Shown piece after piece: positions 1-51,511 of a stretch of 64,000 bases of DNA (position 1 is its first letter; each line of letters opens with the position of its first letter). The translations under genes were made by a program, and so were the position numbers. The notes under the pieces were generated by a model, which saw nothing but the letters and a program-made list of their open reading frames with translations, had not been told where the DNA came from and did no database searches. The stretch lies in the IMG/VR virus record IMGVR_UViG_3300018472_000401, positions 1 through 64,000 of that record. One strand, given 5' to 3'. This stretch comes from a virus. Lineage: Duplodnaviria > Caudoviricetes.

Positions 1-1203
1 ATGGCACGAACAAAATTATACCTCGATACAAGGGCGGTTAAGGACGGAAAGCCAGCACCGCTCAAAGTTGCGATAAACAAGAAGTCGGCAACGGCTCTCA
101 TTTCGCTGAATGTCTTTCTGCTCCCGAACCAGTGGGACAAAAAGGCAGGGAAAGTCGTGAACCACCCCAACAGGCTCTTCCTGAATAACTACATTGCCAA
201 GCGGCATATTGACATTGACACGCTCCTCCTTAAATTGATAGAGAGTGGCGAAATAGCCAATATGAGCGCACTTGACATCAAGAACCATATAGTTTACCAG
301 TTGTCCCCCGAAAGGCAGGAGGACGGCAAGGAAAGGCTGTTTACGCACCGTTTCTTGAAGTTTGCGGAAACCAAAAAGGAAAGCACCCGTATTGTGTATA
401 TGAACACGTACAAGCGGATGCACCAGTTCTGCGCTGACCTCGACAAACTCACATTCGAGGACATCACACGGGAATGGCTGACTGCCTACGACACCTATTT
501 GAGCGAAACATCGCCCTCACGGAACGCCCGGAACGTGCATTTCAGGAATATCCGAGCCGTATTCAATGAGGCAATAGACGATGGCGTGACAAAGGCGTAC
601 CCGTTCAGGCGTTTCAAAATTCGCCCGGTCGCCACGATGAAACGCTCATTCTCCGTTAAACAACTCCGGGAACTCTTCAACGCCCCGACAGACGAACATA
701 CGGAAAAGGCTCTCGACATCTTCAAGTTGATTTTCCTGCTTATCGGAATCAACATCATAGACCTGTGCAAGCTGCGTACTATAAACAATGGCAGGGTTGA
801 GTTTTACCGCTCAAAGACCAACCGCCTATACTCTATAAAGGTTGAGCCGGAGGCAATGGAAATCATCAACAAGTACAAGGGGACGGAACACCTGATAGAC
901 ATCCTCGACCAGCACAAGAACCACCGTTCATATACCGGGATATTGAACAAGACACTTAAAGAGGTCGGCACACTGGCGAATGACGAAAGCAGCAAGCCCG
1001 TCTTTCCCCAACTGACGACTTATTGGGCTAGGCACTCGTGGGCGACCATAGCCGCCTCCCTCGAAATACCTAAAGAAACGATTGCGGCTGCGCTGGGGCA
1101 CGGCGGCAATACCGTGACGGACATTTACATTGATTTCGACCGCAAAAAGGTTGATGAAGCCAACAGGCGAGTGATAGATTGGGTGTTATACGGGAAATTA
1201 TAG
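1..1203 (+). CDS. int: Tyrosine recombinase / phage integrase
   Basis: N-terminal arm-binding-like domain, SAM-like core, catalytic motifs RSKT, RHSWAT, LGH and IY near the C-terminus. Confidence 0.95.
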   Translation: MARTKLYLDTRAVKDGKPAPLKVAINKKSATALISLNVFLLPNQWDKKAGKVVNHPNRLFLNNYIAKRHIDIDTLLLKLIESGEIANMSALDIKNHIVYQLSPERQEDGKERLFTHRFLKFAETKKESTRIVYMNTYKRMHQFCADLDKLTFEDITREWLTAYDTYLSETSPSRNARNVHFRNIRAVFNEAIDDGVTKAYPFRRFKIRPVATMKRSFSVKQLRELFNAPTDEHTEKALDIFKLIFLLIGINIIDLCKLRTINNGRVEFYRSKTNRLYSIKVEPEAMEIINKYKGTEHLIDILDQHKNHRSYTGILNKTLKEVGTLANDESSKPVFPQLTTYWARHSWATIAASLEIPKETIAAALGHGGNTVTDIYIDFDRKKVDEANRRVIDWVLYGKL

Positions 1204-1290
1204 TTATTTTCTCCGAATTTTGAGCGAGAGCAACGAACTTTCCTTATTTGATAAAGTCCTTGCCCGAATAATTTTCGTTGGCGAGAGGCA

Positions 1291-1366
1291 ATAAAAACGC
1301 CCGGCAAGAGTAGCCAAGCCGGGCGAACATGAAGATTGCGTATCACTACGCAAGCTCCACAACAAC
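1291..1366 (-). ncRNA. Candidate trans-acting phage sRNA (~76 nt)
   Basis: TATCTTTG -7 box at 1378-1371; single-stranded 5' end GTTGTTGTGGAGC; perfect 7-bp hairpin TTGCGTA-GTGA-TACGCAA (GNRA loop); GC-rich terminator plus U-tract; no ORF; seed complementary to five phage start-codon regions. Confidence 0.65.
1298..1325 (-). terminator. Intrinsic terminator for the lysis operon/sRNA, possibly bidirectional
   Basis: CGCCCGGC...GCCGGGCG stem followed on the minus strand by TTTTTAT. Confidence 0.8.
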
Positions 1367-1370
1367 GGTG

Positions 1371-1378
1371 CAAAGATA
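1371..1378 (-). promoter_or_regulatory. Bacteroidetes -7 promoter element (TAnnTTTG)
   Basis: Minus strand TATCTTTGCA; ATTG 18 nt upstream as a -33-like box. Confidence 0.6.
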
Positions 1379-1408
1379 GCGAAATTATCCCGTTTTCAAT
1401 ACTAATAC

Positions 1409-1909
1409 CTAAATAAATCTTCGTATAAGGCTGCGCATCGGCTTCCTGAATACATAAACCAACAACAGCAATATGGCTACAACCGAATAGGGAAACCAGT
1501 TGATGCAGGTTTTCTCCCACCGGGTTAGACTGCGCTCTACCGGGACAGGGACTTCAACGTACCTATCTACATACGCAATGCTGTCCCTGCGCTCAATCTC
1601 CTTATTAACTGGCACTGGCTTCTTTTGCGGCTTCGTTTTGAGGTCGTGGAAGAGTGAGCCATCGGGATTGATTTTGGCATCGGAAACGGCAAAGTCATTT
1701 TCGAGGTGGCTTGTGCTGTCCCGTGTAGTCCTTTCGGCTGTTTGTGCAGGTATCTCGATATACGTTGTGTCATGCACAAACACTTTCTCGTACTTGACCT
1801 CGACATTGCTGTTGGTCGTTTCCTGAATTGTCGTTGTAGGCAATTTTCTTTGTGTCCCACAACCGTACAGCAAGCAGGACACGGCTAAAATAAAAATCAG
1901 ATTTTTCAT
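1409..1909 (-). CDS. Lipoprotein with C-terminal TM helix; probable spanin-like lysis protein
   Basis: Lipobox LYGC after a signal peptide, C-terminal hydrophobic helix, directly downstream of the endolysin. Confidence 0.6.
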   Translation of the reverse strand: MKNLIFILAVSCLLYGCGTQRKLPTTTIQETTNSNVEVKYEKVFVHDTTYIEIPAQTAERTTRDSTSHLENDFAVSDAKINPDGSLFHDLKTKPQKKPVPVNKEIERRDSIAYVDRYVEVPVPVERSLTRWEKTCINWFPYSVVAILLLLVYVFRKPMRSLIRRFI

Positions 1910-2496
1910 ACTCCTATGTATTTGATGATACCCTCAACGTGAAGTTTCACGATTGCCTGTCTGCCCTCCTGCGATTGGAGGAAAGCGACATCATCCTTAT
2001 TGTCCTGAAAGAAGTTTTCAGTCAAGACTGCAGGGCATCGTGTCTTTGTCAGTATATAGAAATTCTCTTCCCAGTCGGGGTCTTTGTCCGACCAGTCGCT
2101 GCGTATCTTTGTGCCAGCCGGAAGATGCTCTGCAGCCGCTTCATAGAGGCAGGATGCGAGGGTGTCGGCTTTTGTGTTGCCCTTGCTCGTGTAGGCACTC
2201 CAGCCCCTTGCGTTCATCCAATCCCCGTTCCCGGCTGCATTGCAGTGAACGGAAATGAGGATTACATTGGACGCTCCCAGTTTGCCGCAGAACTCGTTTA
2301 CACGCCTTGCCCGTTCCGCAAGCGGAACATCTACCGTTTCATGCACGATACGTTCAGCATCGTAGCCTTTCAATCTCAATTCACGCTCTATCGCCTCCGC
2401 TATTTCACGGGCGTACAGGTATTCACGGAACTCTCCATCGGGGCTTCTCTTGCCCTTTGTGTTCTCTCCGTGTCCGTTGTCAATTAGAATTTTCAT
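1906..2496 (-). CDS. Endolysin, N-acetylmuramoyl-L-alanine amidase (Amidase_3-like)
   Basis: DNGHG, E, SVHCNA and LTEN zinc-amidase motifs. Confidence 0.92.
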   Translation of the reverse strand: MKILIDNGHGENTKGKRSPDGEFREYLYAREIAEAIERELRLKGYDAERIVHETVDVPLAERARRVNEFCGKLGASNVILISVHCNAAGNGDWMNARGWSAYTSKGNTKADTLASCLYEAAAEHLPAGTKIRSDWSDKDPDWEENFYILTKTRCPAVLTENFFQDNKDDVAFLQSQEGRQAIVKLHVEGIIKYIGV

Positions 2497-2499
2497 ATA

Positions 2500-3105
2500 T
2501 CATTCAGTTAATCTGTGATAAAAATCAAGTTTTATTCTGCTATATACCGCCTCCACGTTGGTAAAGGCACGGGCGTTATTCTGCTCTGAATACACCTCTT
2601 TCTCCACGACCTCCGCAACCCAATCAATCCATTCCGGGGAAGTATAGTGGGTCAGAGTATTGCCACGATACCTGGTGCTGTCAAAACGGCTGTTCCTGTC
2701 TTCGTGGAGATTGCAGAGCAAAGTCCTGATTTTAGCCTTGGTCGCCTCCTTGTCTGCAATATGGTTTTCCTCACGTACCTTTTTGATAATGCGGCAGACT
2801 TTCTCCGTGGATAGGTCGAAGCAGGTATTGGATATGTTCTTTATCTGTAACAAGGTTGATGGACGCAAGCCGTCCGCAATCTCGTTCAGGACATCGTTCT
2901 GTGCATCGGTTTTGGTCAGAAGTGCGCTCATAGTTGCGGAATTGTTCTTAATCACGTTATCCATGATACTTTTGAACCAGCGGAATAAGGCTACCCACAT
3001 TCCAAGAGACAATACTATAAAGGATGCACCAATAATAATCAGTACGCCAAGGTCGCTTATGCCTTTTGCAACCTCTAACGTCCCTTGCACTTCATTCATA
3101 GCCAT
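2500..3105 (-). CDS. Membrane protein of the lysis cassette (holin/antiholin-like)
   Basis: One N-terminal TM helix; lies between the small holin-like gene and the amidase. Confidence 0.45.
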   Translation of the reverse strand: MAMNEVQGTLEVAKGISDLGVLIIIGASFIVLSLGMWVALFRWFKSIMDNVIKNNSATMSALLTKTDAQNDVLNEIADGLRPSTLLQIKNISNTCFDLSTEKVCRIIKKVREENHIADKEATKAKIRTLLCNLHEDRNSRFDSTRYRGNTLTHYTSPEWIDWVAEVVEKEVYSEQNNARAFTNVEAVYSRIKLDFYHRLTE

Positions 3106-3326
3106 CTAACCGCTAAACGTCCGACAATCGCTCCGGCTACGGTCAGTCCGAAGTCTATCCAATCCCATTCGCAGCCGTGCGCCTTGTCTTTGTATTCAAG
3201 GCTTGCCGCTGATAGGACAGAAGCGTAGAGGGCGCAGTAATCAGAGCCTGAAAAAGCCCCGATTGCTGCACCTCCCACGATATGCTTCCACCTATTACTT
3301 GTTTTGAGCCAATTTAATATCTTCAT
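3096..3326 (-). CDS. Small membrane protein, holin candidate
   Basis: 76 aa, 2-3 hydrophobic segments, first gene of the lysis operon. Confidence 0.45.
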   Translation of the reverse strand: MKILNWLKTSNRWKHIVGGAAIGAFSGSDYCALYASVLSAASLEYKDKAHGCEWDWIDFGLTVAGAIVGRLAVRWL

Positions 3327-3347
3327 ACATTTATGTTTTAATCCAGA

Positions 3348-3382
3348 TGCAAAGGTACTAAAATACGCTTACAATATAAGCA
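3348..3382 (-). promoter_or_regulatory. Late promoter of the lysis operon with palindromic box A
   Basis: TACCTTTGCA at 3357-3348; CGCTTACAATATAAGCA at 3366-3382. Confidence 0.6.
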
Positions 3383-3437
3383 CTATGAGGCTTTTACTTT
3401 TCGTAAATGGTGAATTTATACAGGTTTCACAGGTTTA

Positions 3438-3932
3438 TCACAAGAGTTTATTCAGTTTGTATAGTTCCAAATCAAACGCATTTTTCCTCTTCCATCCTGC
3501 TTCCAGCGTCTCTTGTACATATCGAATAGCACTCATATAGAAGTCCGTCAGCTCTTCAAGCGTATCAAACACCCGATACACTGGCTGTTCATCCGTACCG
3601 AACTTGAACGTGACCGGAAGCGTTGCACCGCTGGTCTGCACGGCAAGGTCGTATGTCGCTTTATAATTGAACTGATTCTCTGAGGATAGCCACACCAGGT
3701 TGCCCTCATACTCGAAGCCAGACAGGATTGCTTGGTCTGTCTGTCTGTTGTACCACACGATGACGATTGCTTTTATCTCCTCATCCGTAGGCTTGTGGTC
3801 AAACTCCTCCTCCATGTAGTCAGCAGAGTCATCCTCATGTTCCTGCACGTCCCAGCGTATGCGCCACTTGTCTTTCTTGGGGTTCACGCACTCTATGGGC
3901 AATACCCCTTTGTTTCCTGTTACTCTTCTCAT
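3438..3932 (-). CDS. Conserved Bacteroides phage protein (DUF4376-like); true start MRRVTG at 3932
   Basis: WLSSENQFNYKA...TFKFGTDE motif; starts 1 nt after the RT stop codon. Confidence 0.6.
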   Translation of the reverse strand: MRRVTGNKGVLPIECVNPKKDKWRIRWDVQEHEDDSADYMEEEFDHKPTDEEIKAIVIVWYNRQTDQAILSGFEYEGNLVWLSSENQFNYKATYDLAVQTSGATLPVTFKFGTDEQPVYRVFDTLEELTDFYMSAIRYVQETLEAGWKRKNAFDLELYKLNKLL

Positions 3933-3933
3933 A

Positions 3934-5361
3934 TCAAGTAAAAATATATTTTGTTTCACCTTTCTTCCCGTACATTTCCGCTTTGATTGTGGTTGTGAAC
4001 GGGAACTTATCCATTTCACGGATTTGCTCCAGTATAGACCACATTTCCTTGGATGCCGTGAAAAGCTTCTTTTCCACTCCGTCCACCTTAATGCGCACGA
4101 CATATCTGCCGTGTGGCTTTTCGATGTCCTCCGGGTTGATTACCCCTGCCGGGACTTTGCCGTTGTTCGCTGCGAGGGCGGCATTATAGACCGCTTTTGC
4201 CTCCGCAACTTTCTTCTCGTACTCCTCCCTCTCGAAACGGGGGACGATGCCAGTTTCAAAGTCCACCACCTCGATAGGGATGTTTACCAACTCACGGACG
4301 GACACGCTCATTCCCTTGAAACGCTTTTTGCCGTCCTCAAACTTGGGCTTGATGCCCAAACTCTTAAAATCATTCATCTTGATACCAGTTAAACGATAAA
4401 ACAAATTGTGGCAGTTTGCGTGCTTGCACTGCCCGTATAGGGAGGCAATTATCTCCTGCCGTCTTTTCTTACTCTTCACCTTGTGCAGCTTCCGGGCTGC
4501 ATTTTGCTTGTTGCGCTTTCTCAACCGGGTATGGGTTGGGTAGATAACATATCCGAGGAAGTCGATGCCCTCCGTAACCGGGAACACACGTTCATTCCCT
4601 TTCACTTGCAACATCATCAGCCCGGCTCTTTCGTGTACCATGTCCCGGAACTTCCAGCACTCCTTTTTGGTGCTTGAATGTCCGTCCCCATCATCGCAGT
4701 AACGGTAAAAGTGCTTGTAGCCCATTTGGTCTTTGATGTAGTGGTCAAGGAACATACTCAACAACATATTTCCAAAGCCCTGCGATGAGCGTAGCCCAAT
4801 GGATAAGCCGTTAGGCATCATCCTCACGAAACGCTCCAGCATCGTAAGCAGCACCTTGTCTTTGAACATTCTACGCAGGGCATACATCATAAAGTCTTGG
4901 TTCACGCTCTCGTAGAACTTTTTGATGTCGAACTTGTAGGCATACTTCATTGCCTCCGGGTGTTCCTGCAAGTCCCTACGGATAAAATTCAGTAGGTCGT
5001 GCATCCCTCTGCGCTTAATTGATGCCGCTGTGGTGCGGATATACCGCTTGAAAATTTTGTCCTCCACAACCGCCATGATAGCGTTACAGCCAATCCGCTC
5101 TATCAAAGACACGGACTGAACCCTGCGGACTTTTGGACCATCGGTGACAAGCATTTCACGATAGCCGGACAAGCAGAACGTGCCAGTCCGTATTTGCTCC
5201 TGCAACCTCTTTATCACCTCGTCCTGATGCGCCATAATCCAGCGACCGACATGGTTTTTCTTCCGTTTCCTGCCTCTCATTACGACATGGAGAGAGTTAT
5301 AGATGTTGCTGTATTCGCAAATCTCCTCTATGATGTTACTTGTCTTTCCTAATCTTCTCAT
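3934..5361 (-). CDS. DGR reverse transcriptase with a long C-terminal extension
   Basis: DIKKFYES, GLSIGLRSSQ (DGR-type SQ motif), YRYCDD, GIDFLGY; adjacent TR/VR pair. Confidence 0.95.
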   Translation of the reverse strand: MRRLGKTSNIIEEICEYSNIYNSLHVVMRGRKRKKNHVGRWIMAHQDEVIKRLQEQIRTGTFCLSGYREMLVTDGPKVRRVQSVSLIERIGCNAIMAVVEDKIFKRYIRTTAASIKRRGMHDLLNFIRRDLQEHPEAMKYAYKFDIKKFYESVNQDFMMYALRRMFKDKVLLTMLERFVRMMPNGLSIGLRSSQGFGNMLLSMFLDHYIKDQMGYKHFYRYCDDGDGHSSTKKECWKFRDMVHERAGLMMLQVKGNERVFPVTEGIDFLGYVIYPTHTRLRKRNKQNAARKLHKVKSKKRRQEIIASLYGQCKHANCHNLFYRLTGIKMNDFKSLGIKPKFEDGKKRFKGMSVSVRELVNIPIEVVDFETGIVPRFEREEYEKKVAEAKAVYNAALAANNGKVPAGVINPEDIEKPHGRYVVRIKVDGVEKKLFTASKEMWSILEQIREMDKFPFTTTIKAEMYGKKGETKYIFT

Positions 5362-5572
5362 TTTACTTTTTTGCCTTCAATTTTTCGGGGTCTGACTTCT
5401 TCGGCTGACATAAGTCCCTACCAAACTCCACCCCACGCTTTCTTTTCCAGTTTTCCGTGATTACTCACGCTGTTACTGAGGCTCATTCCCACAGGCTCCA
5501 CGTTGGGGACACGTCCCCGTTGTTGTACGCCTGAATACTTTTGAGGCATAACGCTTCTATTTCTTATTGTTT

Positions 5573-5684
5573 GCAAGCCGAGAACCAATGTTCGTGTTCG
5601 TGTTCGATGAATCGTTGTTCGTGTTCGCATACGCAACACCGCCATTCGCATTCGCATTGTTGTTCGACCGATACACCACACGGT
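5573..5684 (-). repeat. DGR template repeat (TR), 112 nt
   Basis: AAC/AAT-rich (11 Asn codons in the VR frame); differs from VR1 and VR2 only at minus-strand adenines. Confidence 0.97.
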
Positions 5685-5720
5685 GTCTTTGGGAAATCCA
5701 CCTTTGTTTTTCAAATGGAG

Positions 5721-5746
5721 GGAGGTCGAACAACAAGGTCGCCTCC
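5721..5746 (-). other. Imperfect GC-rich hairpin 3' of the VR1 gene
   Basis: GGAGGCGA-N9-TCGACCTCC on the minus strand. Confidence 0.4.
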
Positions 5747-5781
5747 GCTCCCGATTTTACGCTTTTTCGCTCCGCTTTCGC

Positions 5782-8700
5782 TTACGCTATTTCGACAATC
5801 GCTTTGAACGCTGCAACGCTCTTCGCAATGACGATTTTTCCACGGAAGGCAAGCCGAGAACCAATGTGCGTGCTCGTGAACGATGAATCGCTGTACGTGC
5901 TCGCACACGCAACACCGCCATACGCATTCGCAACGCTGTCCGACCGATACACCACACGGTTGATATAGCCTGAAACATAGTTATCATCGAAATAGTAACT
6001 TGATGTAGAGCCTCCAGCCCTTGCAACCCAAACGTCCATGTGCCGACCGTTCACTACATTCATCGGGTATCTATCACCGCCCGTAGTATCACCTTTCAGT
6101 TTGCGGATAGAGCCGTCCGGCATAGTGATGTGCATAGAGTAGTCCACCACGCCCTCGTTGAACGTGTCATTTATCCACTCTGCCTTATTGCCGTACCAGT
6201 TCTCATAACCCAATACATTAGGGGACTGAATGTTTTTCTTCGCTCCGTCCACCATGATGTATGCCGTTTTCTCTTCGTGGTTATCGGGGTTAGCGAAAGT
6301 GTCAGTCATTCCTGCCTCGTTGGTAAGTCCCGTAGCACGACCATTCGTGTTTGAACCATAGCCGCAAGTACCTTGGCTATCAGCCTTGCCGTATTTGGCG
6401 TAGAACAGGTTGCAGACATCCTTGTGCATTTCCCAATCGACAAGCTGAAATCCGTTTCCACGGTTCTTCGCATATTGCTTGAAATCCGGCTGCGTTATGC
6501 TTGCGGAAGATTGTACGTCACTTATAGAGCGCAACATATCATCACGTAACAACGCTTCATATACACCTGTAAGACACTCAACGTGTTCGCACCAATCAGG
6601 CTCAATCGCTTCTATATCCTCCGACTTGGTAAGCAGAACGTAGTCAAACGGGGCGTTGTTTACTACCGAGAATGCAAGTTTTACGGCATTTGCCGGAATC
6701 GCATTGAAAAGGTACATTCCGTTGATTATGCCGCTGTCCGAAGTGGCTTTCATGCGCTCTATGATGTTACCCTCCGAATCAAGGAACAACGCACCGTAAA
6801 CAGCCGAAACAAGTCCGGGGAAACGCACCTGCTTGTAGCCCCTAACATCTACCGTGTAGTAACTATTTTGCGATACTTGTGTTTCCGCTTCTGCCAGCGT
6901 GTTGTAATCAACCTGAATGCGTACCGCATAACCTGGCTTCACCTCCAAATCATCCTGCATCAACTTGATGCTTTCTGCCTTTGTCGGTTCGTTTTCAAGA
7001 GAACTGAAAATGCGGTACTTTGCTTTGTTCAAGAAGTCGTTCACACCCTTGTACCAGTAGTGAGGCTCAAACATCCATACATCGCCCTCCGCACCAGTAA
7101 GAATGGCAGGGGTAGCCAAGTTCACGCTCACGGCATCGTTATAATAACTTGAATGCTTGTCGTGCAGCCTACAGATGGTTTCCTCACCGTTGGCGGTTTT
7201 CTTTCCGAGGCAGCGGTAACGCTTTGACAAGATTTTTGCTACGTGACCGCTGTACTCAAACTCATTATCGTAGTCGTACCCGGTCTTGTTGTCGAGGTTG
7301 CTAAAGCCCGTGCCGTCAGTGATATGTTCAAGGTGCTTAATCACGGTGTACTCCGGCTGGCTAATTTGCAATTCCGGGAAATGCTCCTGCATCTGCGCAA
7401 AGGTCGCATCGTCAATGTAAGTGGTAAGCTGACATTTTCCGACAAGGCGGCAGGTCGGGGTGTTACCTCCGTTCTCGTCCACACCGCCAATCTTCATAAG
7501 CCGATTGAGCAACGTGCCATCGTCTTTCATATCCACGCCAGTAACACGCAGGTACTTCACGTTTTGGCACTTATTGAACAGGGCTATCCAGTCGATAGAG
7601 GCGCAATCATCCACCACGAGGCGGTCGATGTTGTCCGTACCCTCCAGTTGCAGCCCGTCATTGGTCAGGCGGTTAAGGCTGACAAGTTCCAGCGTTTGCA
7701 GCGTGGCAGGAAGTACGACCGACATAAGGGGCGCACCCTTGGCGAATGACACGCTTTTGAGGGCTGTGTTCCCGGCTGAAAGCACCTCCAGTTTTGCATT
7801 GCCCGAAAGGTCTATGTTCGTGAAACTTTCGGAAAGCAAGCCGTTCATCGTGAGGCTCTGCAAACTTTTACAATTCGTAACAATCAGCGCATTGAGCGTT
7901 TTCTGCGTTGAGCCGCAACTTACGTTCAGCGACCTCAATGCCGTGCAGTTGTTCAGGTTAAGGGTCTGCAAGATTGCGTGGGACACATTCGTCAGGTCAA
8001 GGTCTCTGATACGGCTTGCCCCGTAGAAGTTCTGTGGGTCGTTCACAATCAAGTCCGTGCTGATAGTCAGTTCCACTTTTGAACCCTCATTTTCCGCAAG
8101 CACCGCACTTTGCGTAGGTGTACCGTTGGTGTAGCCATAGCCGAAGTAGTACCGCTCGCTGGCAGTGATTTTCACCTTACGGGGCGACTGGCTGAACTTG
8201 TAGCCGAAGTAGCAAGCGAAGCTATCCGCACGGTAAGTACCAGCCACATACTGCGCATCCATGAGCGCAAAGCGGTTTTTAATGGTATAGAGGCGGTGGG
8301 CATAGCGGTTTCCCTGCAAGGCATACAGGTAGTCGTAGTACTTCACGCCCTCCGTTGTGCTTACACCCTCCGTCAGAGGCTGGATGTACTTGAAATAGCC
8401 GTCCTTGTTATAGACACGCTCCGACCAGTTACCCATCTGCGTAACATTGAACATCGTAAGCACCTCCTCCGTACTCATGTTAGAGCGGATAATGCCAGCG
8501 ACCTCAATCAACTTGTCTTTCATTGCGGTGCGCACCAGTTCCCACAAGAGGCTATCGTGTCCGGCAAAAGCGTATGAGCCAGTGGAGTTGTCGAAAGTCT
8601 CGTGCGTGATGATATACGTGTACGCAAGCACGGAATCATTACGGCTACCGAGGATTGTATCAGCATCGTAAGGCAGGAAATACCATGTCAGACCGTCCCA

Positions 8701-11700
8701 AGTGGCAAGCATCATATTCTTTGCCCGTTGGTCAACCGCCATGAAGTAGTCCGTGAACAGATACCAGGCGCAAAGGCTGTTTACATCGAAGTATTGGCTA
8801 ACCTCTGCTTTGAACTTATCGGGATTGTTCCGGCAACTTACTATCCAGTTCCACAAACGGGTAATTGCGCCTTTTTGATAGGCGGTAGCATCGCCCCAAG
8901 TAACATCAGCCGGGAAGCGGAACTCCAGACTATCGTCAAACTCCGTCATGTCGCTTGTGGAGAACAGGCAGAGCAGTTTTGAGTTGTTCAGGAACTCCAA
9001 GCAGATGCACGGGTTTTCCTTTCCGGCAAGTGTTGCCTCGTCATTAAAGCCCTCGATACCCTCGAAGCCATAGACAACATGGCTGTCGCTCTTTTCGTTG
9101 TTGAAATTGAACTTTCCGAGATACTTGTTATTGCCGCTGCTGTCGTTGTCGTAAAATCCATCCATCGGGAAACCGTCAACGCCAATGCGCAAATCGTAGC
9201 TACCCTTATATGCCTGTTGTGGAGGTGTCAGGAAGCCGCATTTCTTCCACACGTCATTGACAAGGCGCACAGCACCCGTGTTGTGGGTAGAGGAACTATC
9301 GGAGAAATCGGCTTTCAAACACCAAATTTTAACAGGTCTTGCACCCGGTTTGAAACTATATTCAAGGCTGGGTACATCCTTTCCGTTCACTTCAAGCGTT
9401 GTGCCGTATTTTTCCATGCGGTCAAAATATATGCGGTAGTTCTTTCGGGGATACGTTGTGGATGATGTCCCCTGTATGCGAAGCCCTGCGCCACGAACGA
9501 TGAAGTCGTACTCCTTGCCGTATGCCGAGTAGAAGTATATGTCAACCGGGACTTCAAATTTCTTGTTGTTGGTCTGATTGACAAGTTCCACATCGCCCAC
9601 GATACGCATCACGGACTTACCCTGTGCTCTCAATTTCTCCATATCTACAGAAACGCCCTCATCGTCCATTACATCGTTGGAATTGTAAAGCGTAACCATT
9701 TCCTCGACCGTTTCCCGGTCAACCATGAAATTGACAAGCATTTCATCATCAGTTAAGGGTTTTTCGTAGATACGGATTGAGCGCATATCTACATCTGCCG
9801 CCTCCGAACTTACGGTGATGTTCACAGGGTTGGGCTGCAAAAGGCTCTCCGTTCCGGCATACTGCTTCGTACCACATCGCACACCGTTCACGTACAACTC
9901 CATAAGCCTTGTGTCCGTTTTCTTTTGGATTACAAAGCTGATATGGAAATTCATGTCAGGCACGAAAGGAGTGTTTACCGATGAGCCGTTGGAGGCTATC
10001 ATCTTCACCTCTTCCGCTGTCATTTGGAAGCCGATGCCGCCCTCCATGCAGGACAGGATAACGCCCTTTTTGTCCGTGATGTTGGAGCAACGTAACTCAA
10101 ATTCGTAGGTCGCCCCGTTGGGGGTGGCATCCGAGGCAAAGGGCTTGTAGCCTATCTCAATGTTTGCCCCGTTCTGCATCCTCAATGTTTCGCCCGTCCA
10201 GCCGCTACCGCTCCAGTCAAAGCCGTTGAAAGCGGTCTTGATACCGTTGTACTCCCATTGTGCCGGGTTTTCCTCCGTGTTGCTACGACCTGCGGCTGAA
10301 AGTTTCAGCACCTGCCCTGCGGTAATCTCCTCGATGTCGATGCTTGAAGCCTTAACATCAATGTAGAACGGGTACAGCGTTGTGCCGCACTCGAAACGCA
10401 TATTGGTCTTGCCTTGCGAGGTGTAGCGGTTGGTGTATATCTGCACCGTTCTTGGCACACTGACCGTCTGTGTCTTCACGTTGTCACGGAACACGGACAT
10501 ATCAGCCGGGGTCTTGTCGGGGTCGTATGCGATGAACTCAAAATCCATCTTCTCATACTGCCCTACCTCGATTGTCGGGGTCAGGTGGTCGCTCGTGAAG
10601 ATACGCCCATCAGCGTGGCGCAACAGCGTACCGATGAAAGGCTTGTAACTTCCGGCTTTCAGGATGTCAAAGTAGATACTTTCGGACTTGATTGTAAGGT
10701 CGTCCGAGGCATCCATTTCCGCAACCATTTGGATTGTATGCCGCCCGGCTGCAAGGGTACTCAACGAGAGGTTAAAGTTGCCGTTGGTGATGCCGGACTT
10801 GGTTACGGTCTGTGCGTTCTGCTGCTTGCCGTCCACATAGAGGGTCACGACCTTTGTTCCTGCACCCGAAACGGTGAACGGTATTGACACGGTTTCAAGC
10901 GTTCCGTAGCCGCCCTGCGCTACCTTGTTGGCAAGGTTGTAGGAAGTGGAGAGAGCCAGCGTAACCACCTTAACGGATGAATATGCCTGCTTGGTCTGCT
11001 TCTTGCCCTCGATGTCCGTAACCTCTGCTTTCACGTAGATGTCAGTCGTACCGAGCAGCAGGTACTTGGATATGTCAAGGCTGTAACTGCCCTTTGCGAC
11101 ATTGGTGTAGGACTGGGTGAAAACCGTCTGCACACCTCGCTTCATCTGTATGGTTATGTTCGCCCTCTGCCCAGTGGATTGCCCGGCTTCATCGCCACCT
11201 GTATATTGGTGGTCGTAGGTATAGGTCAGTATGGAACTGCCGCCCTCTTTGATAATCGGGTTATCAACGGAAGAGGAAAGCACGATTTTGGTTGCCGACC
11301 CGGTTTCACCGCCTCCGGCTGGTATGGTAAATTCCGTAATGGTTGCCGACTTGCTTTTAAGGCTCACCGTTACCGTGTTATCGTCATTCTCCGTTACCTC
11401 GCTGCCGAAAAGCGTACCAGCATCCACCTCGTTCAGTTTTGCCGTTACTGCGGCATTTTGAACAGGGTTAGTGGAATCGAGGTTCAAGGTTTCGTCCACT
11501 TCGGGAACATCCACGTTGAGAACCACGTTTCCGGCATCGTCAGGGGTCTTTTTCTCACCGTTGAATGTTATCTGCTTGACCGCACCTGCGCCCCCGTACT
11601 CTTCCCACGCTCCGGGGGTGAGGAAGCTGCTGACGCTTGTTCCGGCAAAGCGGTAATCAGCCCATTTCCCTGCGCTGACCTCGAAAGTGATAATCATGCC

Positions 11701-12420
11701 CAGTTTCGCCTCGTCTGCTATGTCAGCCCCGGCAAGAGACGCCACAGCCGTTTCCTTTGTGTAGTAGCCGCTGCCCAAAGGCTGCTCAACAGTAACATTG
11801 TAGAACCCCGAACCGCTGCCCGAACCACCCCCAAAGTCCTTCCACTTGGAAGCGTTGTTGAACTCCGTAGCCGTGTTGCCCGAGAACTGCTTGCAAGCCC
11901 AGCCCTTAGCCGTGTTGAAAATGAACACGACCCCGTCCTGCTTTGCCTCCATGATGTTGGCTGCGACAATAGCATTAACCGCTGCCGTGATGTCCGCATA
12001 CTTGGTTGTAGTGTTCAGCACCCGGTTCACGTTCACTATCGTACCCCTCAACTCGCCAGCGACATTTCCGAGGTTGCCGAGGGCGGTGTTTACCTTTCCG
12101 ACTGCTTCGTTAGCCGTTCCTGCTGCCGTTTCTGCAACTCCTGCCTTGTTTGCGGCAAGGGTAGCCGCTGCATCGGCACGGGTCGTAGCTTCGACAGCCT
12201 TATTTGCCGCCTCCGTTGCCTTTGCAGCCGCATCGGTGGCAGGTTTGCCCAACAGCGACACGGGGGCTGCTACAACCTTGTTACCTTTCATAGCCGGGAG
12301 GGTCTTAACCCCGTCAAGGGTTGAAACCTCCTCCAACTCGTTCACGCCCTGCGATGCAGCCTTAACCTGTGCAAGTACATCTTGAACGATTTGTTTTCTT
12401 TCCGCATCTGTAATAGCCAT
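5782..12420 (-). CDS. Large tail fibre / receptor-binding protein, DGR target 1 (CotH-like region, LRR-like region, C-terminal CLec-like VR domain)
   Basis: 2212 aa, last gene of the tail module; ENWYGNKAEW...RVVYRS...GSRLAF C-terminus containing VR1. Confidence 0.88.
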   Translation of the reverse strand: MAITDAERKQIVQDVLAQVKAASQGVNELEEVSTLDGVKTLPAMKGNKVVAAPVSLLGKPATDAAAKATEAANKAVEATTRADAAATLAANKAGVAETAAGTANEAVGKVNTALGNLGNVAGELRGTIVNVNRVLNTTTKYADITAAVNAIVAANIMEAKQDGVVFIFNTAKGWACKQFSGNTATEFNNASKWKDFGGGSGSGSGFYNVTVEQPLGSGYYTKETAVASLAGADIADEAKLGMIITFEVSAGKWADYRFAGTSVSSFLTPGAWEEYGGAGAVKQITFNGEKKTPDDAGNVVLNVDVPEVDETLNLDSTNPVQNAAVTAKLNEVDAGTLFGSEVTENDDNTVTVSLKSKSATITEFTIPAGGGETGSATKIVLSSSVDNPIIKEGGSSILTYTYDHQYTGGDEAGQSTGQRANITIQMKRGVQTVFTQSYTNVAKGSYSLDISKYLLLGTTDIYVKAEVTDIEGKKQTKQAYSSVKVVTLALSTSYNLANKVAQGGYGTLETVSIPFTVSGAGTKVVTLYVDGKQQNAQTVTKSGITNGNFNLSLSTLAAGRHTIQMVAEMDASDDLTIKSESIYFDILKAGSYKPFIGTLLRHADGRIFTSDHLTPTIEVGQYEKMDFEFIAYDPDKTPADMSVFRDNVKTQTVSVPRTVQIYTNRYTSQGKTNMRFECGTTLYPFYIDVKASSIDIEEITAGQVLKLSAAGRSNTEENPAQWEYNGIKTAFNGFDWSGSGWTGETLRMQNGANIEIGYKPFASDATPNGATYEFELRCSNITDKKGVILSCMEGGIGFQMTAEEVKMIASNGSSVNTPFVPDMNFHISFVIQKKTDTRLMELYVNGVRCGTKQYAGTESLLQPNPVNITVSSEAADVDMRSIRIYEKPLTDDEMLVNFMVDRETVEEMVTLYNSNDVMDDEGVSVDMEKLRAQGKSVMRIVGDVELVNQTNNKKFEVPVDIYFYSAYGKEYDFIVRGAGLRIQGTSSTTYPRKNYRIYFDRMEKYGTTLEVNGKDVPSLEYSFKPGARPVKIWCLKADFSDSSSTHNTGAVRLVNDVWKKCGFLTPPQQAYKGSYDLRIGVDGFPMDGFYDNDSSGNNKYLGKFNFNNEKSDSHVVYGFEGIEGFNDEATLAGKENPCICLEFLNNSKLLCLFSTSDMTEFDDSLEFRFPADVTWGDATAYQKGAITRLWNWIVSCRNNPDKFKAEVSQYFDVNSLCAWYLFTDYFMAVDQRAKNMMLATWDGLTWYFLPYDADTILGSRNDSVLAYTYIITHETFDNSTGSYAFAGHDSLLWELVRTAMKDKLIEVAGIIRSNMSTEEVLTMFNVTQMGNWSERVYNKDGYFKYIQPLTEGVSTTEGVKYYDYLYALQGNRYAHRLYTIKNRFALMDAQYVAGTYRADSFACYFGYKFSQSPRKVKITASERYYFGYGYTNGTPTQSAVLAENEGSKVELTISTDLIVNDPQNFYGASRIRDLDLTNVSHAILQTLNLNNCTALRSLNVSCGSTQKTLNALIVTNCKSLQSLTMNGLLSESFTNIDLSGNAKLEVLSAGNTALKSVSFAKGAPLMSVVLPATLQTLELVSLNRLTNDGLQLEGTDNIDRLVVDDCASIDWIALFNKCQNVKYLRVTGVDMKDDGTLLNRLMKIGGVDENGGNTPTCRLVGKCQLTTYIDDATFAQMQEHFPELQISQPEYTVIKHLEHITDGTGFSNLDNKTGYDYDNEFEYSGHVAKILSKRYRCLGKKTANGEETICRLHDKHSSYYNDAVSVNLATPAILTGAEGDVWMFEPHYWYKGVNDFLNKAKYRIFSSLENEPTKAESIKLMQDDLEVKPGYAVRIQVDYNTLAEAETQVSQNSYYTVDVRGYKQVRFPGLVSAVYGALFLDSEGNIIERMKATSDSGIINGMYLFNAIPANAVKLAFSVVNNAPFDYVLLTKSEDIEAIEPDWCEHVECLTGVYEALLRDDMLRSISDVQSSASITQPDFKQYAKNRGNGFQLVDWEMHKDVCNLFYAKYGKADSQGTCGYGSNTNGRATGLTNEAGMTDTFANPDNHEEKTAYIMVDGAKKNIQSPNVLGYENWYGNKAEWINDTFNEGVVDYSMHITMPDGSIRKLKGDTTGGDRYPMNVVNGRHMDVWVARAGGSTSSYYFDDNYVSGYINRVVYRSDSVANAYGGVACASTYSDSSFTSTHIGSRLAFRGKIVIAKSVAAFKAIVEIA
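5849..5960 (-). repeat. DGR variable repeat VR1
   Basis: 112-nt alignment to TR with 13 mismatches, all at TR adenines; 3' end CTTGCCTTC versus TR CTTGCAAAC (IMH/IMH*). Confidence 0.97.
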
Positions 12421-27338: not shown

Positions 27339-27354
27339 TATAAAAAAGTTCCGA
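27339..27354 (+). promoter_or_regulatory. Repressor-operator-like site
   Basis: TATAAAAAAGTTCCGA, 15/16 identical to the switch-region site at 53415-53430 (reverse complement TAGAAAAAAGTTCCGA). Confidence 0.55.
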
Positions 27355-27396: not shown

Positions 27397-27413
27397 TGCT
27401 TACAAAATAAGCA
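27397..27413 (+). promoter_or_regulatory. Palindromic box D at the start of the + strand operon
   Basis: TGCTTACAAAATAAGCA (GTGCTTA/TAAGCAC perfect arms), just after TTTG-N20-GAACTTCG. Confidence 0.55.
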
Positions 27414-27440
27414 CCTCCACAACAACAAAAAATTGAAGAA

Positions 27441-28196: not shown

Positions 28197-28242
28197 TAGG
28201 TCACGCCCGGTCTAACCAGCCGGGCATAACTCCGCAACAACA

Positions 28243-28638
28243 ATGACGGAAAATCAAGCAATGCTCGTGGTAGCCGAACAGACAGCAAAGAAACTGGGCT
28301 ACATCGAAGTAAGCAAGAACTCCCATAACGCCCTCCGGGACAGATTTTGGGGCAACAGGGCGGTGGCTGCAATGGCTGGCAAGCCCGTAGTGATAACAAC
28401 CTGCAAGTACATCCTCCCGATGTTCGAGGAGGACAAGGACGATAGCAAGCGCAGACCCAAAATTGAGATTGATATGTTTTGGGGCAGACCCCGGCTGGGG
28501 ATTGACCTGCCCGATGGAACATTCTGCTGCCTCACTTACCGGGACGGCATCTGTAGTGAGGCGCAAGCATTCGGGGACAAGGGGATTGCCTTTGCAGCCT
28601 CAATCAAAGAGAAAATCGACTATTACATCAACCAATAA
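28243..28638 (+). CDS. Hypothetical protein; sRNA-seed site upstream
   Basis: ORF; CTCCGCAACAAC at 28230-28241. Confidence 0.65.
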   Translation: MTENQAMLVVAEQTAKKLGYIEVSKNSHNALRDRFWGNRAVAAMAGKPVVITTCKYILPMFEEDKDDSKRRPKIEIDMFWGRPRLGIDLPDGTFCCLTYRDGICSEAQAFGDKGIAFAASIKEKIDYYINQ

Positions 28639-28651
28639 ACTCCACAACAAC

Positions 28652-29386
28652 ATGGAAAATAAAGACATCAAAACAATTCAGACAACAAAGGGCGAACTGC
28701 GTTACTACCGTGATTGGGATAGATACGAGGGAGGCATCTGCATGATGAACCCCGTAACGATTAAACGCTACCGGGAAATACAGGATATGCAGCCCGATGC
28801 CGACAAGTGCGGTGTGTTCTTCGCTTTCAGCAACAGCCAGTTTCACGAGGGGTACGACCACCTCGTAGAATTGGGGCATATCAAAAAGGGCGACAAGGTC
28901 GTTCAGACGGGCATAGGCGGTATGTTTGGAACGAAAGAGGGCATCGACAAGTTCCTTGACTTCTATAAGGACAGGAACAAGGAGGTTGCTGCCGAGTGCG
29001 ACCCCCAAGAGGTTTATTTCTACGAGTACAACAACCACGAGAGCATGATTGCTTGGGACGGGGACTTGGAGGCTATCAAACTCATCATCGACCTGTTTGG
29101 CGTTGATGAAGCCCGTAAAATCAAGCGTTACAACGCCTCCGAGAGCATCGAGAACTTGGTGCGCAAACCTATCAAGGTGAGCGGTCTGTACTTCCTGAAT
29201 GACGGGGTAAAGGAAACGCCAAGCAGCGTTTGGTTCAACGACCAATCAGGATTGTGCTACACGATGTATGCCTCTACGTTGTACCCCGTATGCGATGCAG
29301 ACGGCAAGCAATACGTTATGCCGGAACTGGCTGGCGTTTCCGCTTACTATGACGGCAAGGAACTCTACAAATTCTATAACGAATAG
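28652..29386 (+). CDS. Hypothetical protein (true start MENKD at 28652); sRNA-seed site abuts the ATG
   Basis: CTCCACAACAAC at 28640-28651; VFFAFSNSQF..G motif typical of gut phage/ICE proteins. Confidence 0.7.
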   Translation: MENKDIKTIQTTKGELRYYRDWDRYEGGICMMNPVTIKRYREIQDMQPDADKCGVFFAFSNSQFHEGYDHLVELGHIKKGDKVVQTGIGGMFGTKEGIDKFLDFYKDRNKEVAAECDPQEVYFYEYNNHESMIAWDGDLEAIKLIIDLFGVDEARKIKRYNASESIENLVRKPIKVSGLYFLNDGVKETPSSVWFNDQSGLCYTMYASTLYPVCDADGKQYVMPELAGVSAYYDGKELYKFYNE

Positions 29387-29395
29387 GAGGGCATC

Positions 29396-29701
29396 ATGGT
29401 AACAGACGAAAGAATAGAACTTGAAAAGAATGCGCCTTTTGAAGAGATTGGCAAAGACTGGTACGTTCACCTCCTCGAATGTGTACCGCCCGAAAGGTGG
29501 TGCAACCCGTACCGGGAGGGCGGTTGGTTCTTCACGGGCGAACCCCACAGCCACGACTGGGACACTGGGGAAGCATATCACTACCTCTGCTTTGAGTATG
29601 CAGGTAAGTATTATGCAGGATGCAGGAGCATCGGAATGAGAAACGGTGATATTGAGCGTGAAATATCTAAATTCTGCTGCGAGTTAGATTTGGGGGCTTG
29701 A
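29396..29701 (+). CDS. Hypothetical protein
   Basis: LLECVPPERW...FFTGEPHSH motif. Confidence 0.6.
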   Translation: MVTDERIELEKNAPFEEIGKDWYVHLLECVPPERWCNPYREGGWFFTGEPHSHDWDTGEAYHYLCFEYAGKYYAGCRSIGMRNGDIEREISKFCCELDLGA

Positions 29702-29796
29702 TTTAGCCCCTCTCGCACAATATCTACCTTTGAGGCAATAAGTTTATCAACCGCAGGGCAATCGTTGCTTTCGCACAAAATTCAAAGAAAATAACT

Positions 29797-30036
29797 ATGA
29801 GCAATTCAGAATTAAAGAAACAAGCAGAGGAATGGGTAAAGAGTGGCAAACCTTGTATCTACCGCTACGGCTGGGCATACAAAGGAGCAGGAGCAAGAGA
29901 GATAACAACCGAAAAGGCACAGGCATTGCTTCCTCAATACTCTTTCGGTGTGGGCTTCTACGAACTTTCATTCACCAAGCACAACGGACAGGAGGTGCTT
30001 CAATTTAACGAACTTTCCGAAAACGATTTGTACTAA
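29797..30036 (+). CDS. Hypothetical protein
   Basis: ORF preceded by TACCTTTG at 29725-29732. Confidence 0.6.
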   Translation: MSNSELKKQAEEWVKSGKPCIYRYGWAYKGAGAREITTEKAQALLPQYSFGVGFYELSFTKHNGQEVLQFNELSENDLY

Positions 30037-42863: not shown

Positions 42864-43005
42864 CGTCAGCCTCCCTTCCTGTTTCGTGGTGAATTATATC
42901 GGAGAAGTCGCAAGCATCAGCCGGGACATTCCCGAATTTTCCTTTTACACACTCTTCGTAATACTTGCAGTCAGCGCAACTACGTTTTTCTTTTGAATTT
43001 TCCAT
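42850..43005 (-). CDS. 51-aa Cys-containing hypothetical protein (not in the ORF track)
   Basis: MENSKEKRSCADCKYYEEC...; its start overlaps the methylase stop. Confidence 0.5.
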   Translation of the reverse strand: MENSKEKRSCADCKYYEECVKGKFGNVPADACDFSDIIHHETGREADDETD

Positions 43006-44609
43006 TATATTGCCTTTTTAAGTTCGTTCTTGGATAATGTCTTGCAAAGAGCCTCGCAGAGAACTCGTGCCATGTTTACCTCAACCGCATTGCCGATAAA
43101 CTTCTTTTGGTCTGCCTGTGAGCCTACCAGCACGTAATCTTCGGGAAAGCCCATAATCTTTTTCAGTTCGGGTATTTTCAGCATACGCATCTTGATGTCG
43201 ATAATTCCGTAGAGAGCCATAAACTCCTTGATTTTAGCCGTCATCGGGCTATCAGTTGAATAGACTTCAATAAACACCTCGCCCGTTTCCGCTGTAACAA
43301 GATAAGGTGGCATTTTATCCATTCTTGCAATCAGGGTGAAACATGGCTTTTCGACTGAGCCTCCGACATTCTTGTATTGAGGGTTCATCAAGTAGTGGCG
43401 TTTGACCGTTACAAGGTTGAATTTCGGGTTGGTCGTTACAGTATTAGCCGGGACATCCACGGAAGCTGCCGTACCATTCCCGTACTGCATATCAATGAAT
43501 TGTTCTGAACGAATAAGGGCTAACCTGTCTTTCGTTGTAACGGTGGGAGAGGGCATTTCAACGGAATGGTTATTCCCGTTTCCGTAGTATGCCGATATAA
43601 ACGCATGGTGGTCTATGGTCGTGATAGTCCCAGCTGGCTCGTTTACGGAGGTGTTCTTGCTGTCAGGATGTCCGCTGTACTGCTTTGAGAGGAAAGCGAC
43701 CTGTGCGACCCCAAGCCTATTTTGCGTTGCCACCGTAGGACAAGGTTCATCAATACCTGGTGCATTATATTTCCCGGTTCTGCTCATGGAATTGTATTTA
43801 ACAAGAAACGCCTCCTTGCCTCCTGCAATGAATTTTACCAGCCCAGCATATATACGCTCCAGTGTCTTTTCCGACAACGGTTTATCCCTGAATATCGTTT
43901 TGCCCTCGTCTGCGAAGTCAAGAACATCCTTGACGGGCTTCCACTTCGCCAAAGAGCCGAACAGCGTATTTGTCCCGTTCTTGTCGTGGGTCTGACGTGG
44001 GAAGACAATAGGCAAGCCACCCTTTGCGAAGATGCCAAAAAAGCGTTTCCGGCTTGTGTATGCACCATAATCAGCAGCGTTGAGTATGCGGTGGTCAAAC
44101 CTGTAACCGTATGATTTTACTTTGCGCACCCAACGGGTATAACTCTTGCCCTTATCCATAGACACGGGCTTGCCGTTCTCGTCCACCTCACCCCAACTCA
44201 TAAATTCCTCCACGTTCTCAATCTGAATATAGTCCGGGGCTATGGCTTCGATGTATCGGAACAAATGTTCGGCAAGTGTCCGGCTGTCGGCATCCCTTGG
44301 CTGACCTCCCTTTGCTTTCGAGAAGTTGGTACATTCAAGTGAAGCCCACAAGACTACCAGCGCACCGGGATTGTCCTCACGGCACTTTTTCAGATGCTCT
44401 ACAAGTGGGGACAATTCAAGCGTCCTGATGTCCTCCGTGAAGTGCAGCGCATCGGGGTGGTTTGAAGCGTGGGAGGCTATCGCATTTGCATCGTGGTTTA
44501 CGCAAGCAATCACATCAGCGCATTGCTCACCGTTCAATCGTGCGGAATTTACGCCCGTGGAAGTTCCACCAGCACCGCAAAAGAGGTCTATGTATAATAA
44601 CTTTTTCAT
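43005..44609 (-). CDS. C5-cytosine DNA methyltransferase
   Basis: DLFCGAGG (motif I), SLEC (motif IV variant), ENVEEF (VI), RKRFF (VIII), IGNAV (X). Confidence 0.9.
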   Translation of the reverse strand: MKKLLYIDLFCGAGGTSTGVNSARLNGEQCADVIACVNHDANAIASHASNHPDALHFTEDIRTLELSPLVEHLKKCREDNPGALVVLWASLECTNFSKAKGGQPRDADSRTLAEHLFRYIEAIAPDYIQIENVEEFMSWGEVDENGKPVSMDKGKSYTRWVRKVKSYGYRFDHRILNAADYGAYTSRKRFFGIFAKGGLPIVFPRQTHDKNGTNTLFGSLAKWKPVKDVLDFADEGKTIFRDKPLSEKTLERIYAGLVKFIAGGKEAFLVKYNSMSRTGKYNAPGIDEPCPTVATQNRLGVAQVAFLSKQYSGHPDSKNTSVNEPAGTITTIDHHAFISAYYGNGNNHSVEMPSPTVTTKDRLALIRSEQFIDMQYGNGTAASVDVPANTVTTNPKFNLVTVKRHYLMNPQYKNVGGSVEKPCFTLIARMDKMPPYLVTAETGEVFIEVYSTDSPMTAKIKEFMALYGIIDIKMRMLKIPELKKIMGFPEDYVLVGSQADQKKFIGNAVEVNMARVLCEALCKTLSKNELKKAI

Positions 44610-44956
44610 TTTACAATCTTGTTAGGTGTCATATCAATATCCCAGTCGAGGATGTTAGGTGCGCTCGCATGGATTTCACCGCAGCGCATCCCGAAACTAT
44701 CTTTCACGATTTGCTTTGCCTCCTCCTTTGAGGTTGCGTACACTTTCGCCTCACCCTCGAACACAAAGCGGATTTTCACCATATAGTCCTGCCGCTGCTC
44801 CACCGGGAGGTTGAGCCGGAACAACTTGTTTTCAACGTACCTCCTCTTCCGGGCAATCTTCTTTCGTTCTTGTTCAGAACTGGCTGCACTCTCTTCCTGC
44901 TCCAACTCCTTAATGCGTTTTACATACGCTTCTCTTTTGATTTTAATCTCTTCCAT
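44606..44956 (-). CDS. Hypothetical protein; sRNA-seed site upstream
   Basis: TCCACAACAAC ends 1 nt before the ATG (44968-44958). Confidence 0.65.
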   Translation of the reverse strand: MEEIKIKREAYVKRIKELEQEESAASSEQERKKIARKRRYVENKLFRLNLPVEQRQDYMVKIRFVFEGEAKVYATSKEEAKQIVKDSFGMRCGEIHASAPNILDWDIDMTPNKIVK

Positions 44957-45034
44957 TGTTGTTGTGGATTGTTATTTTCTTCAAATCTCAAGCGAGCGCA
45001 ACTAAATACGCTCGCTTGGAACATTCGTTGCTTT

Positions 45035-51217: not shown

Positions 51218-51472
51218 TTATCTGCAAAGTTTTTCAAGTAACATACTCATATCAGCATCACGGAAGATTTTAGCGGCTACACCGCCATCCATCTTTGTTC
51301 GCTTCACGGCTTCAACAAGGAGTTTTCCACTACCCATTACGGCAACAGAAGTTTTGCACTTTGTTTCCTCCTCATTGCGTTCTTTTTCTTCGATTGCAAT
51401 TACCAAGATTTCACGTTTTTTACCCTCTTCATTCTGCCAAGTCTCAATGGCTGATTTCAAATTTTCTGTCAT
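51218..51472 (-). CDS. Hypothetical protein; 18-nt sRNA-complementary site upstream
   Basis: CGCAAGCTCCACAACAAC (51499-51482), 9 nt before the ATG. Confidence 0.65.
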   Translation of the reverse strand: MTENLKSAIETWQNEEGKKREILVIAIEEKERNEEETKCKTSVAVMGSGKLLVEAVKRTKMDGGVAAKIFRDADMSMLLEKLCR

Positions 51473-51511
51473 AATTTTGATGTTGTTGTGGAGCTTGCGC
51501 CCCGGTTGATA

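Follow-up and report, generated by a model that had tools for sequence, protein, structure and literature searches.

Does the short gap between the integrase gene and the lysis cassette of this temperate gut Bacteroidales phage encode an RNA that addresses the translation starts of dispersed genes on the same genome? The viral contig in question (90,562 bp) starts at the ATG of a tyrosine integrase gene (1..1203, plus strand), and the window, i.e., the whole stretch of 64,000 nucleotides that was analysed, is its first 64 kb. A gap of 205 bp separates the integrase gene from the lysis cassette, which is read from the minus strand and includes an Amidase_3 endolysin gene (1906-2496) and, as its last gene, a spanin-like ORF (1409..1909). 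An earlier note on this DNA had placed in the gap a trans-acting small RNA (sRNA) with a 5′ seed complementary to the start regions of five phage genes.

Anatomy of the unit between lysis cassette and integrase gene

The gap houses the putative sRNA unit on the minus strand (1378-1293, from promoter to terminator), convergent with the integrase gene, and the promoter box, seed, hairpin and terminator previously read from it were all recovered. A –7 box of the Bacteroidetes TAnnTTTG type (TATCTTTG, 1371..1378, minus strand), as read from the sequence, is preceded at a distance of 18 nt by a TTG (1399-1397) and followed by a 4-nt spacer (CACC) leading to the predicted transcriptional start site at 1366, where GTTGTTGTGGAGC begins on the minus strand. 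The seed GUUGUUGUGGAG (1355..1366, minus strand) forms the predicted 5′ end of the RNA and is followed by stem-loop 1, a perfect GNRA-capped hairpin (TTGCGTA-GTGA-TACGCAA, 1336..1353, minus strand) that is lengthened by pairing of GUGGAG with CUUCAU (1335-1330). An intrinsic terminator closes the unit (CGCCCGGC...GCCGGGCG followed by TTTTT, 1293..1325, minus strand, with an 8-bp GC-rich stem), so that the predicted sRNA measures ~74 nt and has its predicted 3′ end at ~1293.

The predicted fold of this RNA has a free energy of –34.1 kcal/mol (z = –4.6 vs. shuffled sequences). Nucleotides 1-6 are unpaired with a probability of 0.7-1.0, and GGAG closes stem-loop 1, as judged from the fold of three bodies. 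Since the predicted fold of the free RNA engages the 3′ half of the seed in base pairs, pairing with a target would need strand displacement.

The earlier note had seen no ORF in the unit, which is not strictly so: a 53-codon frame starting at TTG (1204-1365) and a 28-codon frame starting at ATG overlap it. In the 92%-related phage G001 neither frame is intact, owing to frameshifts or a missing ATG, so that a small protein gene was rejected and the unit is read as non-coding. It thus carries, at the sequence level, the hallmarks of a trans-encoded sRNA gene, i.e., its own promoter, an intrinsic terminator and no conserved ORF. No Rfam family matched the sRNA, even at an E-value ≤10, and a search of the phage GenBank collection gave no match to the sRNA region or the early region. 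RNA-library contigs (from two RNA runs, each with a small share of the query) covered positions 1-9000 in fragments at a depth of 1-5, for the integrase, sRNA, lysis and tail genes alike, and stemmed from relatives with 90-95% identity; depth over the sRNA was thus no different from that over silent structural genes.

A separate feature nearby is a complete diversity-generating retroelement (DGR; window 3934-5960 and 49317-49427). It consists of a reverse transcriptase gene (Pfam RVT_1, 3934-5361, minus strand), an Rfam RT-3 RNA (130.9 bits, 5387-5535, minus strand), a template repeat (5573-5684) and two variable repeats that are 88-89% identical to the template. One variable repeat (5849-5960) lies at the 3′ end of a gene for a 2212-aa protein (5782-12420), the other (49317-49427) in a 182-aa early gene (49226-49774), 44 kb away.

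Tags before five early-gene starts

The complement of the seed, (C)TCC[A/G]CAACAAC (tag A), occurs five times in the 90.5-kb contig besides the sRNA gene, in each case on the coding strand and 0-14 nt upstream of the ATG of a conserved ORF; all five sites listed by the earlier note were found at their positions. Three of them belong to a plus-strand operon at 27.4-29.7 kb. Its first gene, encoding an 80-aa protein (phrog_32997), carries CTCCACAACAAC (12/12 match, 27415..27426, plus strand) 14 nt before its ATG at 27441. The gene of a 131-aa protein without a family has CTCCGCAACAAC (12/12 with one G-U pair, 28230..28241, plus strand) 1 nt before its ATG at 28243, and in the gene of a 244-aa DUF7659 protein CTCCACAACAAC (12/12, 28640..28651, plus strand) abuts the ATG at 28652. 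The remaining two sites are on the minus strand. The 11-nt tag TCCACAACAAC (44958..44968) lies 1 nt before the ATG at 44956 of a 116-aa ORF (44606-44956), the stop codon of which overlaps (ATGA) the start of a C5 DNA methylase gene (43005-44609). The longest match, CGCAAGCTCCACAACAAC (18/18, 51482..51499), stands 9 nt before the ATG at 51472 of an 84-aa ORF (51218-51472) and would form a duplex of –37.5 kcal/mol with the sRNA; the ATG of a RecE/YqaJ-type exonuclease follows 1 nt past the stop codon of this ORF (TAAtATG).

The sites lie 26-50 kb from the sRNA gene and on both strands, in line with the earlier description of targets up to 50 kb away. The description of these targets as uncharacterised needs amending for two of them, which lead directly into the exonuclease and methylase genes. 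No PHROGs or Pfam family was found for the proteins of 131, 116 and 84 aa, and a protein-atlas query likewise yielded nothing usable.

Two of the leaders show a further feature, in that a palindrome or hairpin lies directly 5′ of the tag (GTGCTTAcaaaaTAAGCAC and GCCCGGtctaaccaGCCGGGC, at 27397-27413 and 28205-28225). These palindromes may represent a processing signal, a terminator or a protein site.

The complementarity is not random. A search with the 12-mer at ≤1 mismatch gave no further site in the whole 90,562-bp contig, which bears out the earlier impression, gained by eye, that there was no other match of at least 11 nt, and about 0.2 copies of the 10-mer core would be expected in the contig by chance. 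In a duplex-energy scan of both strands, the five sites, together with the antisense of the sRNA gene itself, scored –18.3 kcal/mol or lower, and everything else –17.3 kcal/mol or higher. The location of all five sites at starts has a p-value of ~6e-5 under a permissive null, in which any ATG opening at least 40 codons within –4 to +20 nt counts as a start (this holds for 14% of positions). The sequences flanking the tags are unrelated between sites, so that the tags are not copies of a longer duplicated segment. Finally, in an unbiased count of 8-mers before candidate starts, tag words were the most enriched in G001, G004 and G007, three of the related phages described below. The same kind of count over the whole contig here showed the Shine-Dalgarno-like word AAAGGAGG among the commonest 8-mers (7 of 320 candidate starts; e.g., before 29396), a frequency that is unusual since Shine-Dalgarno use is rare in Bacteroidota.

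The earlier note had also allowed for the tag being a generic start-codon enhancer common in host genes. Two host genomes, both carrying related prophages (the Duncaniella MAG G005 and G006; 2.9 and 4.0 Mb), contain the tag 11-mer 5 and 7 times, compared with 3 and 6 times for the reversed control, and only the prophage copies are at start codons. Likewise, CACAACAAC with an ATG at most 14 nt downstream was no commoner than its control (4 and 6 vs. 7 and 15 occurrences). With counts at chance level in these two genomes, a generic host enhancer was rejected. Mimicry of rRNA was rejected as well, since the host genomes hold no such sequence outside coding regions.

A role of the motif in DNA, be it as an operator, as an arm site for the integrase or as a linker for recombination where modules meet, might be read from the copy near the integrase gene and from the position of the motifs at gene boundaries. 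We regard this as extremely improbable, as all sites are on the coding strand and 0-14 nt from an ATG, some of them inside tight operons that leave no room for a promoter (e.g., 28638 to 28652), and their unrelated surroundings speak against duplicated modules. Integrase arm sites in particular were rejected because the motifs are not clustered at att. Moreover, the putative operator of the phage is a different sequence. This switch-type 16-mer, TATAAAAAAGTTCCGA, occurs with a 16/16 match at 27339-27354, before the plus-strand operon, and with a 15/16 match on the other strand at 53415-53430, where it adjoins a CI-like gene (53467-53844), and is a candidate operator linking that operon with the switch region. 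Because the 16-mer is common to the plus-strand operon and the CI-like switch, the tagged genes would be early and probably repressor-controlled. The 16-mer is absent from the sRNA promoter, which looks unregulated. With tagged operons that carry or adjoin a putative switch-type operator, the suggestion that the sRNA might form a layer on top of CI fits the arrangement.

Seed and tag in related phages

The arrangement of box, four nucleotides and GTTGTTGTGGAG recurs in G001 (a 56-kb phage with a spanin protein 92% identical to that of the present phage, G000), G004 (a 49.5-kb provirus) and G005 (the Duncaniella prophage). These four phages, referred to as type A, have an identical seed on three unrelated RNA bodies: stem-loop 1 and the terminator are unrelated in sequence between G000/G001, G004 and G005, while G000 and G001 are too close to count as independent conservation. 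In each type A body, nucleotides 1-6 are predicted to stay unpaired, and stem-loop 1 is closed by GGAG, the partner of which is a CUCC or CUUC further downstream. The loci of all three relatives lie between lysis genes and integrase, and the lysis-sRNA-integrase order is the same in G004 and G005. The seed is thus kept better than the body, and together with target complementarity above chance this is what a trans-encoded sRNA would be expected to show.

Tag A stands at five start regions in G001, four in G004 and one in G005. In G004 it directly precedes the genes of a RecE-like exonuclease, a helicase and a DUF7659 protein, and an 86-aa ORF. G001 carries a perfect tag at the site orthologous to 28230-28241, and at the site orthologous to 27415-27426 a C-to-T change opposite G, giving a wobble pair. 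In all, six substitutions fall inside tags, and all six (A/G opposite U or C/T opposite G) keep the pairing; since all are transitions, they are by themselves only suggestive. With seed and tags kept while the bodies differ, the sequence comparison supports the earlier reading of a trans-acting sRNA whose 5′ seed would address the starts of dispersed phage genes. None of 400 other Bacteroidales genomes sampled contained the promoter-plus-seed pattern, which makes type A rare within the searched set. A pattern scan of genome contigs gave two genuine loci among the at least 120 listed, and a viral scan with the seed plus a T-run returned chance matches only.

A second lineage (type B: G007, G009, G016, G017 and G019), found via the spanin and DUF7659 proteins, has a different ~75-nt RNA in the same slot. 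A –7 box of its own precedes this RNA, which comprises a 5′ hairpin, a single-stranded internal seed (UUGCGUUGAAUA) and a terminator; its tag, (A)TTCAACGCAA (or AUUCAACGCAA), stands at four to six starts per phage. The complete 62-kb provirus G007 contains seven copies of the complement TCAACGCAA, one being the RNA gene and the other six lying 0-5 nt before ATGs. Four starts are tagged in G016, four in G017 and six in G009, including the integrase leader, and the tagged genes of type B encode an SbcC-like ATPase, a DUF3873 protein, DUF7659 and small ORFs. An exact 17-mer of the type B RNA was found in 32 viral contigs, ~26 of them genuine, on three different bodies.

In two type B phages the order along a single strand is sRNA, repeat-rich att-like spacer, integrase gene (G009/L335 ~29340-29800; G007/L328 ~4640-4720), and in the integrase leader of G009 the B tag is 6 nt before the ATG.

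The co-variation of seed and sites for which the earlier note had looked to related prophages is present, the sister lineage having exchanged seed and tags alike. Among DUF7659 orthologues, tag A is present in all three contigs with an A sRNA (including G001 and G004) and tag B in seven of the eight with a B sRNA (including G007, G009 and G019), and never the wrong tag. One type B phage, G017, has lost the tag on DUF7659, so that membership of the regulon appears fluid; the sequence of the DUF7659 leader in G016/G017 does not recur as a tag. The same holds for the family of the 116-aa ORF of the window: its 74-aa orthologue bears tag B in G007, G009, G016 and G017. These comparisons are strong evidence, at the level of sequence and within an A/B association that comprises few independent lineages, that orthologous genes carry whichever tag fits the resident sRNA.

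The two lineages also bear on the reading of the tag as a cis-acting RNA element recognised by a protein (a translational repressor or enhancer factor, or a processing enzyme), with the antisense copy at 1355-1366 as a by-product or decoy. Tags that are strictly strand-specific and adjacent to start codons could be read by a protein too, and CA-rich unstructured leaders favour initiation in Bacteroidota. For each of the two unrelated tags, however, a genome holds a single antisense copy, which invariably falls within the exposed portion of a promoter-terminator unit at the same genomic position. This, together with substitutions of the kind tolerated by RNA pairing, makes a protein-read element very improbable.

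In every type A and type B locus, precisely 4 nt separate the TAnnTTTG box from the first base of the RNA, a spacing kept across six different RNA bodies. This matters for the question of where the anti-tag is made. Between the stop codon of the spanin-like gene (1409) and the sRNA there is no terminator. Late lysis transcripts would therefore be expected to have the anti-tag at their end as well, and the slot right after the lysis cassette is kept in G004, G005 and the type B phages. The anti-tag could then work chiefly while still part of the late lysis transcript, at its 3′ end, or after being cut from that transcript as an sRNA, and serve a late shut-off of early translation rather than silencing in the lysogen; RegA of phage T4 offers a likeness for such a late shut-off of early-gene translation, there not by RNA. 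However, a canonical –7 box at fixed spacing in every variant argues for independent transcription, and a seed within a long 3′ UTR would no longer be a free 5′ end, which renders this reading rather unlikely.

Other RNAs were noted in comparable positions. A structured RNA of ~190 nt fills the slot after the spanin gene in L009 (4490-4690), L013, L016 and ~25 further loci, with its own TAnnTTTG box, a terminator and visible compensatory changes between variants; it gave no Rfam match and showed no multi-start complementarity. Neither the L015 (G003) unit nor the ~190-nt RNA of G012/G014 had multi-site complementarity, and a seed guessed for L027 (G002) had only one plausible start-region site.

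Proposed mechanism and known systems

Taken together, the unit is probably the gene of a trans-acting antisense sRNA that mutes tagged early genes via seed/tag pairing. From the features above we infer that the unit is transcribed and when its product would act, and from the position of the tags that the effect would be repressive. A ~74-nt RNA, running on the minus strand from 1366 to ~1293 and beginning with GUUGUUGUGGAG, would expose nucleotides 1-6 as a toehold while GGAG is held in the base of stem-loop 1. Its seed would pair with the 11-12-nt tag (C)UCCACAACAAC, 0-14 nt before the five early-gene starts, and a duplex inside the ribosome landing window should block initiation. Through tight coupling, expression of the RecE-like exonuclease and C5 methylase genes that follow two of the tagged ORFs would also be lowered. 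The sRNA might be made constitutively in the lysogen, and an extra supply could come as the 3′ end of the late lysis transcript. Weighing against this reading, 12 bp is a short match, and Bacteroidota, to our knowledge, have no Hfq; they also have no ProQ and rarely use Shine-Dalgarno sequences.

The opposite sign of regulation, with pairing that remodels the leader hairpins (27397-27413, 28205-28225) or protects the mRNAs from decay, might be suggested by the hairpin or palindrome directly before three of the five tags. We consider activation quite improbable, since the tags are 0-1 nt from the start codon at three sites and overlap the ATG in G004 and G007, where a duplex should exclude the 30S subunit, and since known Bacteroides sRNAs that pair at the start codon repress (PMC11697453).

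Under the preferred reading of a muting sRNA, seed and tags would form a specificity pair, for which the sister phages use UUGCGUUGAAUA/AUUCAACGCAA on partly orthologous genes, and the unit would in its logic resemble an RNA immunity or regulatory determinant. The matched A/B specificities recall the heteroimmunity of P1/P7 c4 and make an immunity-type role plausible. We tentatively propose, as a possibility that is open to considerable doubt, that seed/tag pairs are RNA immunity types, in which a constitutive prophage sRNA mutes its own leaky early genes and those of superinfecting phages with the same tag. The muted genes would be those of recombination, replication, the methylase and the DUF7659 operon, and selection for escape would lead to a coordinated switch of the seed and all tags, as between A and B. 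If true, this would be a programmable, Hfq-independent 'tag-and-mute' immunity layer, widespread in gut Bacteroidales phages.

Little is known of post-transcriptional control in Bacteroidota, and the system is compact, with a single 74-nt RNA, five leaders that bear a 12-nt tag and, in type B, a naturally occurring second specificity. If confirmed, it would mean that a phage can place an entire early regulon under the control of one RNA, give an RNA explanation for heteroimmunity among gut phages, and provide a portable knock-down tag for Bacteroides genetics. The earlier note knew of no multi-target sRNA in Bacteroidales phages, and a look-up within the searchable literature agreed, finding no description of a regulatory RNA for temperate Bacteroidota phages.

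Among phage-encoded trans-acting sRNAs that alter phage development, VpdS, PreS, 24B_1 and DicF are comparable in kind, but are Hfq-dependent and act largely on host transcripts or host sRNAs, and we know of none described with a dedicated tag on a set of its own phage's starts. VpdS of vibriophage VP882 acts on phage and host mRNAs (PMC12197685).

A closer likeness is to the c4 RNA (P1/P7 immI; Rfam C4, RF01695) and the CI RNA of satellite P4, which are likewise phage RNAs of ~75 nt that pair with short complementary stretches in the ribosome-binding region of phage mRNAs. The target blocked by c4 is icd, and translation of ant is coupled to that of icd; in the present phage, the exonuclease and methylase genes are linked in a comparable way to the small tagged ORFs before them. 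As in the A/B pairs on orthologous genes, seed and target differ in matched fashion, and in P1 and P7 such a matched difference between related phages underlies heteroimmunity (PMC12197685). The differences are equally clear. The C4 model gave no match at the gathering threshold in the window, none at an E-value ≤10 in 1200-1450 and none in six related loci. c4 is cut from the transcript of its adjacent targets and has its recognition sequences in loops, whereas the present unit has its own –7 box and a free 5′ seed, and its targets are 26-50 kb off on both strands. Furthermore, c4 has two sites in one leader, compared with four to six targets here, scattered over 26-50 kb and at least two operons, in a host phylum without Hfq and most Shine-Dalgarno use.

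With respect to mechanism, FopS-10 of B. thetaiotaomicron binds several mRNAs beside the start codon and thereby represses their translation, as demonstrated by compensatory mutations (PMC11697453), and the pairing predicted here in silico would likewise be adjacent to the start codon in several mRNAs. The FopS family and GibS are trans-encoded Bacteroides sRNAs of similar size; they are, however, chromosomal and multicopy and target susC/PUL mRNAs, whereas here the RNA and all of its perfect targets are phage-borne, and a lax Rfam scan returned weak unrelated models (best 16 bits vs. a gathering threshold of 49.5), none of them FopS or GibS. By analogy, then, the closest counterparts of this unit would be the P1/P7 c4 RNA in logic and FopS/GibS in mechanism.
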